A stretch of 64,000 nt of DNA from a virus (Duplodnaviria; Caudoviricetes): positions 1-64,000 of the IMG/VR virus record IMGVR_UViG_3300029288_000081; one strand, 5' to 3'. The position numbers and the translations under genes are program-made. Below are positions 3,104-56,884 of this stretch, piece by piece. Each line of letters begins with the position of its first letter. Within the stretch, counting starts at the first letter, position 1. The notes below the pieces were generated by a model. It was given only the letters and a program-made list of their open reading frames with translations. It was not told the DNA's origin and did no database searches.

Positions 3104-3781
3104 ATGTCCTACGCCTGCATCGATCGCGACGAGGTCGCCCGTCGGGGCCTCTGTGAGGGTGCTGCCACGCAGCCGCTGATCATCCGAGAGGTGCTGGTGC
3201 GGCCCGTTCGCGAGCTGGCCTTCAACAGCGTCACCCTGCCCCCAGCGACCGGCTTCCGGCACGCCCCGATGCGCATCTCCCGTCCTCGCGGCCGAGGTCG
3301 CCCCAGGCAGGCCCTGGGACGTGCATCCTACGCGCCGCCCGTGCCGCCCTCTATCTCGGGGCGCCGGATGGCTCCTCCGGCCGCTCAGGGCTGCCAGGGC
3401 CCGTCCACCGCCTACACGTCGCGCCCGGCGGCTCCCGTCACCCCCGGAGCCATCTACGACGCGTCCCCGCCGACGTACACGGCAACTCCGGCGCGTCAGC
3501 AGTTCCAGACGGTCATCGGGCCCTCCATGACCTACGCATCGCGCCAGGCCGCCGCGGAGCCCGCGCAGACCGCCTACCGGCCGTCGGCGCGCTACCCGGA
3601 GGCTCCCGAGGCGCCGATGTCGCGAAGGCCCTTCCGGGCGCCGGTGAGCGGCCTCGGGCAGGCCGCGGATGTCTCGCCGCGGTGGAAGTGGGCGACGTTC
3701 GGGCTCGTGGGGCTCGTCGTGGCGCAGTTCTTCTGGTGGGACGCTCGCGCTCCGCAGGTTCTGCGTGGCGGTGGCTACTAG
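3104..3781 (+). CDS. Pro/Ala-rich protein with GLGQ motif and C-terminal TM helix
   Basis: Starts MSYA; VSGLGQ followed by WATFGLVGLVVAQFFWW; TTGCAC-N17-GACCAT upstream. Confidence 0.65.
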   Translation: MSYACIDRDEVARRGLCEGAATQPLIIREVLVRPVRELAFNSVTLPPATGFRHAPMRISRPRGRGRPRQALGRASYAPPVPPSISGRRMAPPAAQGCQGPSTAYTSRPAAPVTPGAIYDASPPTYTATPARQQFQTVIGPSMTYASRQAAAEPAQTAYRPSARYPEAPEAPMSRRPFRAPVSGLGQAADVSPRWKWATFGLVGLVVAQFFWWDARAPQVLRGGGY

Positions 3782-3784
3782 GCG

Positions 3785-5224
3785 ATGACCTGGACCCCCG
3801 ACCAGCTCGCGTTCGTGCGCTCGTGGACCGAGGCCCTCCTCGCGTTCGGTAAGGACGCGTTCGTGCGGGGCACGGTCACGGACGTTGTGGCCTGGGAGGG
3901 TCAGTCGACGCCGAGGTACAGCTCCTTCCACTTCGCCTTCGTGGGCGATGCCGTCAAGCTCGCGACGACATTCGGCTACACGGTCACCGGCGACGAGACC
4001 GACGAGCAGATCAACTCCGGGGCGCGTACCGGACCGATCGCCTCGGCTGCACGCCGGCACCTGCGCGCCAAGCGCATGTCGGAGGACCTGGGTCATGATC
4101 AGATCGTCCTGGCGGACTTCATGGACCGCCTCACGGGCCAGGCCATCGGCGAGTTCTCCCGGGATGAGATGCCGTTCACCGAGGCGTACGGCGCTTGGAT
4201 CTTGAACCCGGGCTACCCCTGGCCAGAGGACGACGCCCAGCCCTTCTCCTACTGGTCGGCGAAGAAGAAGGCGATCATCTCGCCCGAGCGCCCCGGCTGG
4301 CTCATCCGGGTGGAGGACGACTCGAACGGGGAGAACAAGACGGTGCTCGGCGTGAACCCGTGCATGGTCTTCCCCGCCGAGCCGCAGACGCAGGAGTGGC
4401 CGCTCTGGGCACGCGCCAAGACCGTCGACATCATCGTCGCGCACTCGATGACGCTTCCCGCTGACCTGGCTCATGGCTCTCACCTGCCCGCGTCGTACCG
4501 GTACAAGGAGCTGACGCAGGCCATCGAGGGGGTTCGCTCCTGCGGCGGCCTGCTCTTCCCGTCGCTCTCCTACGGTCCGATGCCCGCGTCGAACTTCGGG
4601 CCGCTCACGCTCGTCGGGCACATGGGGCTCGTGCTCGACGGGCTCAAGCCGTACAAGAAGCGCGGCGTCGATCCTGCCGCGTGGGTGTACGAGCACGACG
4701 CCTGGACGATCAAGACCCGCGAGCTGATGACCGGCGTGGCCCAGCGCATCTTCGGCGAGATGCACGGGCACGAGGACTACATCTACGGGCACAACCTCTG
4801 GACGCTTGGGCCACCGGCAGAGCTGTTCGGTGGACCGTCGCAGGGAAGCCGCCCGATCAAGACGGTGGCCCAGCTCATCGCGGTGGCGAAGCGGCGCGGG
4901 AACATCTTCAACCGCTCGATGACCGAGGCGGAGTTCGCGGTGGTGAACGAGCGGGTGTCCGGCACGGTCGACAAGTACGCCTACGGCGAGGCCAAGGGGC
5001 GCAGGGTCATCTCGCTGGACGAGTTCCCGCTCTTCATCGGCCCCGAGCACCAGCGCAGGCAGATGGAGATGTTCGCGAAGGGTGTCGGGTACCGGGGGAA
5101 GATCGTGACCCTCGACGACCCGCTCGGGGTCTCGGAAGACGCGTCGGACTACGTGCTGTACCAGTGGTCGCTCCTCGTCGCCGACGCCATCAAGAAGCTC
5201 GCGCCGCCGATGGAGCTACGTTGA
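3785..5224 (+). CDS. hypothetical protein
   Basis: 479-aa ORF with strong GC3 bias; family not recognised. Confidence 0.75.
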   Translation: MTWTPDQLAFVRSWTEALLAFGKDAFVRGTVTDVVAWEGQSTPRYSSFHFAFVGDAVKLATTFGYTVTGDETDEQINSGARTGPIASAARRHLRAKRMSEDLGHDQIVLADFMDRLTGQAIGEFSRDEMPFTEAYGAWILNPGYPWPEDDAQPFSYWSAKKKAIISPERPGWLIRVEDDSNGENKTVLGVNPCMVFPAEPQTQEWPLWARAKTVDIIVAHSMTLPADLAHGSHLPASYRYKELTQAIEGVRSCGGLLFPSLSYGPMPASNFGPLTLVGHMGLVLDGLKPYKKRGVDPAAWVYEHDAWTIKTRELMTGVAQRIFGEMHGHEDYIYGHNLWTLGPPAELFGGPSQGSRPIKTVAQLIAVAKRRGNIFNRSMTEAEFAVVNERVSGTVDKYAYGEAKGRRVISLDEFPLFIGPEHQRRQMEMFAKGVGYRGKIVTLDDPLGVSEDASDYVLYQWSLLVADAIKKLAPPMELR

Positions 5225-5248
5225 CTGTCTGACACGTGTGGCTACGGT
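5221..5248 (+). promoter_or_regulatory. sigma70-like promoter containing TGTCTGACA
   Basis: TTGACT-N16-TACGGT, palindrome at 5226-5234, GTG start 6 nt downstream. Confidence 0.6.
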
Positions 5249-5254
5249 CGTCGG

Positions 5255-54900: not shown

Positions 54901-55358
54901 CTTCCCCGCGAGGTCCGCCGCTTGGCGGCGGCAGGGCGCCTGGACCGGGGGCCTGCGAGCGGGCGGCTCGTGCGGCGCCTCGCCACCACGTCGCCCGGCA
55001 TGAGCGTCGGCAAGGCCCGCTTGGTTCGCAGCGCGATGAGCGGCCGCACGGGCTTGCCGGTGCCTCCGGAGAGGACGGCGATGCACCGGCCGCCGGGGTT
55101 GATGAGGGCGACGAGGATCTCCGCCACGCTGCCCGCCGGCACACGCTGCGCCTCGAACACCGCGTACTTCATCGCGGTCCTGCGGTCGTAGATCTTGGCC
55201 GAGAGCGATGTCCACCTCTGCCCCCAGAGCGTCGGCACCCCCTCCGCATCGAGCTTCAGGAAGACCATCTTGTACGCGGGGCCAGCGACCGTCAGCGCAC
55301 CGCTGTCCGCACTCTCGTCCGGTGCCGAGGGCGTCTCGGCTTCGTTGTTATCGACCAT
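54897..55358 (-). CDS. hypothetical protein
   Basis: TGTCAGACA at 55376-55384 upstream. Confidence 0.6.
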   Translation of the reverse strand: MVDNNEAETPSAPDESADSGALTVAGPAYKMVFLKLDAEGVPTLWGQRWTSLSAKIYDRRTAMKYAVFEAQRVPAGSVAEILVALINPGGRCIAVLSGGTGKPVRPLIALRTKRALPTLMPGDVVARRRTSRPLAGPRSRRPAAAKRRTSRGR

Positions 55359-56565
55359 CCGGCCGTTGTACTCCATGTCTGACAAACCGAGCAACCTGTT
55401 CGTACACCGCCACCAGCCGGCGGGTCGTGATGTCGCGCGCGTACGACGCCCCGGTCTTCCGAGCGTTCTCGCGACGCGCCTCGCGCTCGCTTCGCGGCAG
55501 GCGTGACCAGTCGAACAGGGCTCTCGCGAGCGCCTCGGGGCTCAACTCGTTCACGATCTGGCCGTTGAAGCCGCTCTCGACGATGTCCCTGGTGCCGGGG
55601 CCGTCCACCGCGATGATGGGCACGCCCGCGGCCATCGCCTCGGCCAGGACGATGCCCTGCGTCTCGCTCGTCGAGGAGAACGCGAACGCATCCATGGCCC
55701 CGTAGGCGTCGGCGAGGGCCTGGCCACGCTGCACGCCGAGCCATCGGACGCGCGCGGCGACGCGGTTGGCGCGGAAGATCTGATCCATCTCCCTGGAGCA
55801 CGTCCCCTTGCCCACCACGATCGCTCGGGCCGCCGGGTTCGCCGTCATGAACATCGAGATCGACCGCGCGAGGAAGGCCAGGTTCTTCTCCTTGGACAGA
55901 CGACCAACGTGCCCGACCACGAACGCGTCCGGTGCGATGAAGTGCTTCTTGCGCACGCTCTTGCTGTCCGGGCTCGCGAAGAACTCGACGTCGATGCCCG
56001 ACGGGGTCACGTAGACCGGCACCGTCACGCCGCGCTCCATCAGCATCCGCGCGACGCTCCCCGAGAGCGTGCAGACGGCGTCGCACGCGTTGGCGAACAC
56101 CGACGGCACCGTCGTCGCCCCGAGGAACGAGGTGGCCGCTGCGGCAGCCTTGGAGAAGATCGACGCGTGCTTGGGGGCGAAGTGCTGCGTGTAGTGCTCG
56201 TAGAGCGTGTGGTGGTGGAAGATGATGGGCTTGCGCAGCGTCCTCGCCGCCACGAGCGCCGCACGACCCAGGAGGAACGGGTGGTGCGCGTGGACGACAT
56301 CGGGGTTGAACCTCTCGACGATGTTGGTGAGCGGCCCCACCACGTAGAGAGGCATCGAGAAGTCGCTCCCTCCGACGGCGGGGATCGAAGGAACCCGGAT
56401 GTTCCCCTCGCTGTCGGCGTGGATGGGCGTCACGGCGTCAGGGCCCGGGGCGACAACGAGCACCTCGTGCCCGAGCTTGCGCAGCGAGCGCACCATCCGG
56501 TCGACGCCGTTCGCCACGCCTCCGACGTGCGGCAGGTACGTGTTGGTGGCCATGAGGACGCGCAT
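55348..56565 (-). CDS. GT4 glycosyltransferase (diacylglycerol glucosyltransferase-like)
   Basis: TNTYLPHVGGV, HAHHPF, HHHTLYEHY, VGRLSKEKN, SETQGIVLAEAMAAG. Confidence 0.92.
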   Translation of the reverse strand: MRVLMATNTYLPHVGGVANGVDRMVRSLRKLGHEVLVVAPGPDAVTPIHADSEGNIRVPSIPAVGGSDFSMPLYVVGPLTNIVERFNPDVVHAHHPFLLGRAALVAARTLRKPIIFHHHTLYEHYTQHFAPKHASIFSKAAAAATSFLGATTVPSVFANACDAVCTLSGSVARMLMERGVTVPVYVTPSGIDVEFFASPDSKSVRKKHFIAPDAFVVGHVGRLSKEKNLAFLARSISMFMTANPAARAIVVGKGTCSREMDQIFRANRVAARVRWLGVQRGQALADAYGAMDAFAFSSTSETQGIVLAEAMAAGVPIIAVDGPGTRDIVESGFNGQIVNELSPEALARALFDWSRLPRSEREARRENARKTGASYARDITTRRLVAVYEQVARFVRHGVQRPDGR

Positions 56566-56590
56566 CGGAAGGCGGTGTATAGTAGCCGCC

Positions 56591-56884
56591 ATGGGCTACT
56601 CGCAGGTCACGGGCATGAGTTCGACGCGCTTCCCTCTGAAGGGGCTGAGCGGGTGTGGTTGCCAGGCCACGAGCGGTCTGGGGCAGGTCGAGAACTCGCC
56701 TCTCGGCGGGCTCCTGGCGCTTGGGCTCTTCGGAACGCTCGCGTACCTGACCTTCACGAGCCCGGGGACGTGGAAGATCGGCAGGGACGTGACCTACACG
56801 AGCGGTGGCTACTACGACCACGGGTTGGGCAAGTGGGTGACCCCGAACCGTCGTCGCCGCGGGCGCGGCCGCCGTCGGCGCTGA
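56591..56884 (+). CDS. membrane protein with GLGQ motif and Arg tail
   Basis: LKGLSGCGC..SGLGQ, TM helix, WVTPNRRRRGRGRRRR; TATAGT 7 nt upstream. Confidence 0.75.
   Translation: MGYSQVTGMSSTRFPLKGLSGCGCQATSGLGQVENSPLGGLLALGLFGTLAYLTFTSPGTWKIGRDVTYTSGGYYDHGLGKWVTPNRRRRGRGRRRR

Follow-up and report, generated by a model that had tools for sequence, protein, structure and literature searches.

In adenoviruses, the precursors pVI, pVII, pX/Mu, pVIII, pIIIa and pTP are cut by adenain at (M/I/L)-x-G-x-G or (M/I/L)-x-G-G-x, and the carriers of these sites are structural proteins, including arginine-rich DNA-condensing core proteins and a membrane-active protein. In bacteriophage T4, the internal proteins and Alt share a short N-terminal capsid-targeting peptide that loads cargo into the particle, ends at a protease consensus and is removed by the prohead protease gp21 (compare the gp175 sites of phiKZ). 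Here we describe an arrangement comparable to both in the genome of an uncultivated bacterial virus, IMGVR_UViG_3300029288_000081 (171,466 bp, 66% GC, CheckV completeness of 100%), of which the first 64 kb form the stretch analyzed here, referred to as the window. About 30 otherwise unrelated proteins of this genome carry short tags: a Met-Ser-Tyr (MSY) start, the motif G-[LM]-G-Q and a membrane helix with an arginine-rich tail after it. As in the adenovirus precursors, a glycine-based consensus with a hydrophobic residue four positions upstream recurs on several unrelated proteins, and as in T4 a short N-terminal peptide is shared by proteins that are not related. Unlike in T4, no HK97-type head genes were found, the N-terminal tag reads MSY...G-[LM]-G instead of a Leu/Ile-x-Glu site, and the motif also occurs internally and beside transmembrane (TM) helices.

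As the high GC content gives open reading frames (ORFs) in all frames, genes were called with a codon log-odds model trained on long ORFs, which yielded about 232 to 240 genes; 240 proteins entered the tag counts. Translation confirmed the motifs of the five window ORFs on which the original prediction was based, and the tagged set proved to be larger than first noted. Across the 171-kb genome GLGQ was observed 11 times, compared with 0.82 expected from composition, and G[LM]GQ 12 times, compared with a mean of 1.14 and a maximum of 5 in 2,000 within-protein shuffles, which rule out a chance origin of the excess. Tyrosine follows in 19 of the 51 proteins that start with MS (19/240 proteins overall), against a Tyr frequency of 0.024 (p = 4e-18), and Asn-Arg-rich C-terminal tails were found on 21 of the 240 proteins. 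The tags also occur together. A hydrophobic helix is present in all 12 G[LM]GQ proteins (Fisher p = 8e-6), bearing out the earlier description of the carriers as membrane-helix proteins, many with arginine tails, and G[LM]GQ is likewise associated with the Asn-Arg tail (p = 1e-4). G[LM]G lies within the first 25 residues of 11/21 M[ST]Y proteins, compared with 3/219 others (p = 4e-11). Six of the 21 Asn-Arg tails are carried by helix-less proteins, implying that the tail has a role of its own beyond membrane topology.

The densest block of tagged genes lies at 144 to 154 kb, with more at 68 to 95 kb and 155 to 170 kb, so that most carriers are outside the window, and most tagged genes share one late block with candidate shell proteins. 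Two such shell candidates are encoded at genome positions 162554 to 163429 and 163604 to 164563. The tagged proteins include an M23 peptidase bearing both anchor and tail, and others have peptidoglycan-binding-like and hydrolase-like domains (judged by reading only); these wall-related proteins and the M23 peptidase fit virion-borne entry enzymes. The MSY start is also found on a 971-amino-acid (aa) SNF2 helicase (8518 to 11433, plus strand) and on a DnaQ-like exonuclease (genome positions 109339 to 109998, minus strand), both lacking helix and tail. These two occurrences could be due to chance, or MSY could address soluble cargo too.

The codons at the 12 motifs vary synonymously, with Gly encoded by GGC, GGT, GGG or GGA and Leu by CTC, CTG or CTT, and the Ser of MSY is encoded by AGC, TCG or TCC. 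This variation indicates that selection on the tags acts at the level of protein, not DNA. In a six-frame search for G[LM]GQ, 12 of the 19 matches were in called frames, while the other frames were near expectation; a DNA repeat or a translation-start artefact behind MSY and GLGQ is excluded by the codon variation at Ser, Gly and Leu together with the restriction of the excess to the coding frame. The original prediction had treated the GLGQ proteins as a family, a view that did not hold. When 27 tagged proteins with their tails removed were compared all against all using BLASTP, the five window proteins showed no similarity to one another and the rest of the set gave just three weak local pairs, ruling out paralogy of the tagged window proteins. 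None of the five has an above-threshold match in Pfam, NCBIfam or PHROGs. Taken with the BLASTP result, this indicates that the tags are portable short modules on unrelated proteins and do not define a homologous family.

The five GLGQ genes of the window, and a sixth that carries the MSY start, are as follows.

3104 to 3781, plus strand: 225 aa, MSY start, a long Pro/Ala/Thr/Tyr-rich region, VSGLGQ at residue 183 (3650 to 3661) and a helix at residues 196 to 214 (3689 to 3745), without an arginine tail.

38257 to 38709, plus strand: 150 aa, starting MSYARGLGQ (38272 to 38283), with DSLGQ at residue 73 (38473 to 38484) and two glycine-zipper helices (about 38560 to 38691).

52733 to 53074, minus strand: 113 aa, MSY start and a strong central TM helix (52880 to 52936), without GLGQ here, the ortholog in the related genome G002 having MRGMGQ.

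53665 to 54153, minus strand: 162 aa, starting MSYAGLG, with a two-Cys mini-domain, FAGLGQ at residue 47 (54004 to 54015), a variable linker, a helix at residues 120 to 138 (53740 to 53796) and the tail ISANRRRRRVRR (53668 to 53694).

54150 to 54563, minus strand: 137 aa, a conserved N-terminal domain, PLRGLGQ at residue 86 (54297 to 54308), a helix at residues 101 to 119 (54207 to 54263) and the tail LRKNRRRVRRNRRRGSRR (54153 to 54197).

56591 to 56884, plus strand: 97 aa, MGY start (MSY in orthologs), PLKGLSGCGC, TSGLGQ at residue 29 (56675 to 56686), a helix at residues 38 to 56 (56702 to 56758) and the tail VTPNRRRRGRGRRRR (56846 to 56881).

All five GLGQ genes were called coding by the codon model; the score of 3104-3781 was weak (0.086 per residue), those of the remaining four ranging from 0.14 to 0.25. 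Below the level of a confident family assignment, the 38257 protein has a weak Pfam match to Gly-zipper 2TM (E = 0.005), and residues 20 to 48 of the 56591 protein have a sub-threshold MYXO-CTERM match (E = 0.027, 14.8 bits, with a cut-off of 20 bits). Ahead of their arginine runs, the window proteins have a hydrophobic-x-x-Asn hinge, which reads I-S-A-N, L-R-K-N or V-T-P-N; most orthologs of the 53665 protein have V, I or M at position -3. A ubiquitin-like C-terminal GG on the neighboring 53079-53603 protein was dismissed, as it is not kept in orthologs. The genes at 8518, 38257, 56591 and genome position 78567 have -10-like hexamers, some of the extended-TG type (TGTAGAAT, TGTATAGT and TAAGCT), 6 to 7 bases ahead of the start codon and no Shine-Dalgarno sequence; the arrangement suggests that several MSY genes have leaderless transcripts. 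A sugar-modification cluster encoding an acetyltransferase, an aminotransferase and three glycosyltransferases (41439 to 48250 and 55348 to 56565, both on the minus strand) flanks the tagged membrane-protein genes of 52.7 to 57 kb.

Searches with the candidate shell protein as query identified 11 related viral contigs, and three of these were compared with the present genome (G000) end to end: G001 (161.5 kb, with terminal repeats), G002 (152.9 kb) and G003 (297.7 kb). The motif excess recurs in these relatives, with 15 G[LM]GQ observed against 1.1 expected in G002, 7 against 1.2 in G003 and, from incomplete gene calls, 3 GMGQ against 0.16 in G001. G001 and G002 have orthologs of 54150, 53665, 53079 and 52733 in synteny; G003 retains the first three in the same order, and no ortholog of 52733 was detected in it. 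Orthologs of 38257 are present in each of the three genomes and those of 56591 in two, while the C-terminal end of the 3104 protein, comprising motif and helix, is conserved in G002 and G003. In G001 the shell gene and the 3104 ortholog are on one strand and about 7 kb apart; gene 3104 probably belongs to the late block, which is consistent with a circularly permuted map of G000. Just upstream of it, 1360 to 3033 (plus strand) encodes a 557-aa protein with a PcfJ-like region and pentapeptide repeats at its C-terminus, and this gene probably marks the end of the late block.

Metagenomic homologs were found for the 53665 protein (n = 33) and the 54150 protein (n = 31). In an alignment of 18 of the 33 homologs of the former, S2, Y3, G47, G49, Q50 and N154-R158 are invariant, while the segment after the Gln varies in both length and sequence. 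Similarly, in 18 of the 31 homologs of the 54150 protein P83, L84, G86 and G88 are invariant and Q89 is conserved in at least 90%. Distant contigs, in which the candidate processing enzyme described below is 53 to 59% identical, keep the same tag grammar with MTY and GVGQ variants. No match to the 53.0- to 57.5-kb region (megablast) or to three of the proteins (tblastn) was obtained in 50,697 phage records, and a full-text literature search found neither the tag motif nor the viral lineage described.

The context of the motif was examined over 37 sites pooled from four genomes. Residue -2 is hydrophobic in 22/37 sites and is M, I or L in 13/37 (p = 0.0015), with A, R, T or G at many sites; residue -1 is small or Arg, and G-[LM]-G-Q is followed by V, A or T and then by an Ala/Thr/Pro-rich stretch. 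Of 211 G[LM]G occurrences, 37 are followed by Gln, for which the background is 3.2%. The distance from motif to helix is not fixed, ranging from 8 to more than 300 residues and differing among orthologs. In P0180, a metagenomic ortholog of the 54150 protein, PLRGLG is parted from its Q by the two-Cys mini-domain of the neighboring 53665 gene, inserted at exactly this point; the insert ends in a GMGQ of its own and is 68% identical over 41 aa to the 53665 mini-domain (E = 2e-19). Two further proteins (P0176 and P0033) have duplicated junctions, and in G003 the 54150 ortholog is longer by about 100 residues between junction and helix. The orthologs of 38257 in G001 to G003 keep A/G-[LM]-G-Q at both places, the one in G001 lacking the domain between them. 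Read together, these arrangements indicate that G-[LM]-G-Q marks module junctions.

The original prediction likened the motif to an adenain-type cleavage site. That comparison stands as a loose fit at position -2, given the M/I/L excess there; as to the enzyme, a six-frame search of the genome gave no match to adenain C5 (PF00770) or Ulp1-type C48 (PF02902) proteases, though divergent members could escape, and the only candidate cysteine enzyme has a transglutaminase core. The locus further differs from adenoviruses in the added Gln, in the TM-anchored carriers, in the bacterial host and in having M, I or L at -2 in only about a third of the sites. The candidate enzyme is encoded outside the window.

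Genome positions 143545 to 144141: 198-aa protein, heading the densest (late) block of tagged genes.

This protein has 162 homologs at E <= 0.001, the best 120 of which are 57 to 94% identical, and C119, H157 and D174 are invariant in a 25-sequence alignment of the family. No family was assigned using hmmscan, and a precomputed PF01841 match exists for 2 of the best 120 homologs. The AlphaFold model (predicted local distance difference test [pLDDT] score of 80, predicted template modeling score of 0.80) matched the putative proteases 3isr and 3kd4 in Foldseek (E = 2e-4), followed by PNGase, LapG and transglutaminases. Using VIA, residues 22 to 198 aligned with 3kd4 at Z 11.6 (root mean square deviation of 3.3 Å, 155 aligned residues) and with the cores of factor XIII, TG2 and TG3 at Z of about 10. 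On the strength of the model, a transglutaminase-core fold with a Cys-His-Asp triad is taken as established, and the protein is the best candidate for a processing enzyme. A profile search of the family against PDB sequences returned designed Kelch repeats only, which were regarded as spurious. A functional parallel is with the LapG/BTLCP enzymes, whose substrate, the adhesin LapA, is cleaved at a double-alanine site: both combine a transglutaminase-core Cys-His-Asp enzyme with a small-residue motif in a flexible segment, the viral cutting being presumed. LapG differs in being a periplasmic, calcium-dependent enzyme with a single class of substrate; the viral protein lacks a signal peptide, and the tagged proteins are its putative substrates.

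With regard to the virion, hmmscan of all called proteins of at least about 290 aa against PHROGs and Pfam identified replication and repair enzymes, an integrase, RtcB, glycosyltransferases, a MoxR-like ATPase and the M23 peptidase, and no tailed-phage capsid, portal, terminase or tail families, though very divergent forms could escape. Six-frame searches for the HK97 capsid, two terminase families, portal, FtsK (PF01580) and A32 (PF04665) were also empty. Among six proteins matching a Walker A expression, a canonical P-loop context was seen only in the UvrD helicase and the MoxR-like ATPase. The model of the 319-aa candidate shell protein is a long helix plus a beta-sandwich (pLDDT of 62). 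The genome thus lacks recognizable tailed-phage structural and packaging genes, which accords with part of the original prediction. A tailless design is therefore plausible, although the six-frame negatives are weak and the structural match of the shell candidate is at background level. Like the tailless internal-membrane viruses PRD1, PM2, SSIP-1 and SPV1, the present virus encodes many small TM proteins together with (candidate) shell genes, and has TM-anchored cell wall hydrolases; like the archaeal SPV1, whose genome is protein-condensed and which has no packaging ATPase, it has no recognizable packaging ATPase and encodes basic, putatively DNA-coating proteins. Unlike these viruses, it has a genome about 4 to 15 times larger and a transfer RNA (tRNA) array, and its shell fold is only tentatively modeled. 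To our knowledge, no shared tag grammar is known in PRD1, PM2, SSIP-1 or SPV1.

Tentatively, we favor a reading in which the tagged proteins are membrane-anchored components of the particle or its assembly site, with junctions processed by the viral transglutaminase-fold enzyme. The modules are an N-terminal Met-Ser-Tyr, usually with G-[LM]-G within about 25 residues; a junction of the form hydrophobic-x-G-[LM]-G-Q, after which comes an Ala/Thr/Pro linker that varies; and, in many carriers, a C-terminal hydrophobic helix followed by hydrophobic-x-x-Asn and an arginine run. The helix would be placed in a virus-associated membrane and the arginine tail would bind DNA or acidic lipid, while the 198-aa Cys-His-Asp enzyme would act at G-[LM]-G-Q, most likely making an endoproteolytic cut that parts the modules, much as adenain does at its sites on the core and membrane-lytic precursors of adenovirus. 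We infer the link between enzyme and motif, the cutting, the virion location and the virion membrane. A role in the particle is supported by the clustering of tagged genes beside candidate shell genes and by the anchor and tail on the M23 peptidase, and cutting by the behavior of the junctions and the loose fit to the adenain pattern.

Several observations weigh against this reading. Four of the five window genes are far from the late block and lie beside sugar-modifying genes, and Q is replaced by D, E or S in some orthologous motifs. The best match of the shell candidate, to small jelly-roll cement and capsid proteins (Z 8.2; SPV1, 7.4), is within the background of the search. The six-frame PF01841 search also missed 143545-144141 despite its transglutaminase-core fold, so the six-frame Pfam negatives for this genome are weak evidence. 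Alternatively, the 198-aa protein could serve as a lysin, as the Pei endoisopeptidases do, or be a genuine cross-linker. By the positive-inside rule, the arginine tails would be on the cytoplasmic face of a host-derived membrane, which is the outside of a PRD1-type internal vesicle and away from the DNA lumen; by analogy with SPV1, tails on that side would fit a membrane wrapped round a pre-condensed nucleoprotein.

Somewhat unlikely, in our estimate, is that MSY and G-[LM]-G-Q are uncut docking or hinge motifs that bind shell, scaffold or chaperone, or flexible turns, giving recruitment without chemistry. The position of the motif in flexible Ala/Thr/Pro-rich linkers and at N-termini is typical of docking motifs, MSY occurs on the soluble helicase (8518) and exonuclease (109339), and the action of the enzyme on the motif is itself only inferred; a four-residue motif with two glycines would, however, be a poor binding epitope alone, and the gain or loss of whole domains exactly at the junctions fits separable modules better. 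The positive-inside placement of the tails, and the proximity of the 52.7- to 57-kb cluster to glycosyltransferase, aminotransferase and acetyltransferase genes, would suit proteins working in the host membrane during infection (in lysis, superinfection exclusion, a replication or assembly compartment, or envelope and glycan remodeling), with the arginine tail as a topogenic stop-transfer signal. This is less probable still, as most tagged genes accompany the candidate shell proteins in the late block, six proteins have an Asn-Arg tail and no helix, and about 30 proteins is far above known lysis or exclusion sets.

Among the best-scoring solved relatives of the enzyme are true transglutaminases (factor XIII, TG2 and TG3, at Z of about 10), and the motif Gln could be an acyl donor that such an enzyme cross-links to lysines of shell or membrane proteins, stabilizing the particle in the manner of Tgl in Bacillus spore coats. 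The enrichment of Q after G[LM]G favors this, and donor glutamines typically lie in flexible segments close to termini. Most microbial transglutaminase-core proteins are nevertheless thought to be proteases, the replacement of Q in some orthologs is at odds with a donor role, and the insertion of a domain at the junction is left unexplained, so that cross-linking appears quite improbable. Motif, helix and basic tail do follow one another in the 54150 and 56591 proteins (motif and helix only in 3104), the same order as at the C-terminus in LPXTG, PEP-CTERM and MYXO-CTERM signals, and the sub-threshold MYXO-CTERM match in 56591 points the same way. A sortase-, exosortase- or MYXO-CTERM-type sorting signal read by a host or viral enzyme is nonetheless very improbable. 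Unlike proteins with those signals, the tagged proteins start with MSY and have no hydrophobic leader, hence no signal peptide; the spacing from motif to helix is variable, including the insertion in the G003 ortholog; the motif is often at the extreme N-terminus; and no sortase or exosortase match (PF04203 and PF09721) was detected, although a host enzyme might act in its place.

Other features of the window and lineage were recorded alongside the tagged genes. The window has 28 tRNA genes, comprising a minus-strand array of 26 (59877 to 64000) and two on the plus strand (48476 to 48631), one of which (48476 to 48556) has a predicted four-base anticodon and lies just upstream of the RtcB RNA ligase gene. 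RtcB (48994 to 51111, minus strand) matched its Pfam profile in two stretches, with about 350 surplus residues, and the large glycosyltransferase (45926 to 48250, minus strand) has a LAGLIDADG_3 domain at residues 339 to 388; both extras look like intein or homing-endonuclease insertions. Contigs of the lineage at seven loci (L051 to L057) are binned in metagenome-assembled genomes of Acidobacteriota, Clostridia, Nannocystaceae, Lentisphaeraceae, Planctomycetota, Patescibacteria and Saccharibacteria. As these bins are labeled with seven different phyla, they are uninformative on the host and are likely binning artefacts.

A broader possibility, which we consider speculative and doubtful, is that of a widespread lineage of 150- to 300-kb tailless bacterial viruses in which unrelated proteins would be addressed by MSY and anchored by helix and Asn-Arg tail to a genome condensed by arginine and wrapped in membrane. 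Packaging would need no motor, and the G-[LM]-G-Q junctions would be cut or cross-linked by a transglutaminase-fold enzyme. Such a system, if real, would have evolved independently, as a prokaryotic equivalent of the core maturation seen in adenoviruses and poxviruses. If the junction is a processing site, it would provide the first description of a maturation-site grammar in a non-tailed bacterial virus, with an enzyme whose fold is not known from virion maturation. The particle proteins could then be listed from sequence alone across an uncultivated lineage with hundreds of metagenomic homologs and genomes of up to 298 kb, and whether very large bacterial viruses can do without head, tail and terminase machinery would become directly testable.

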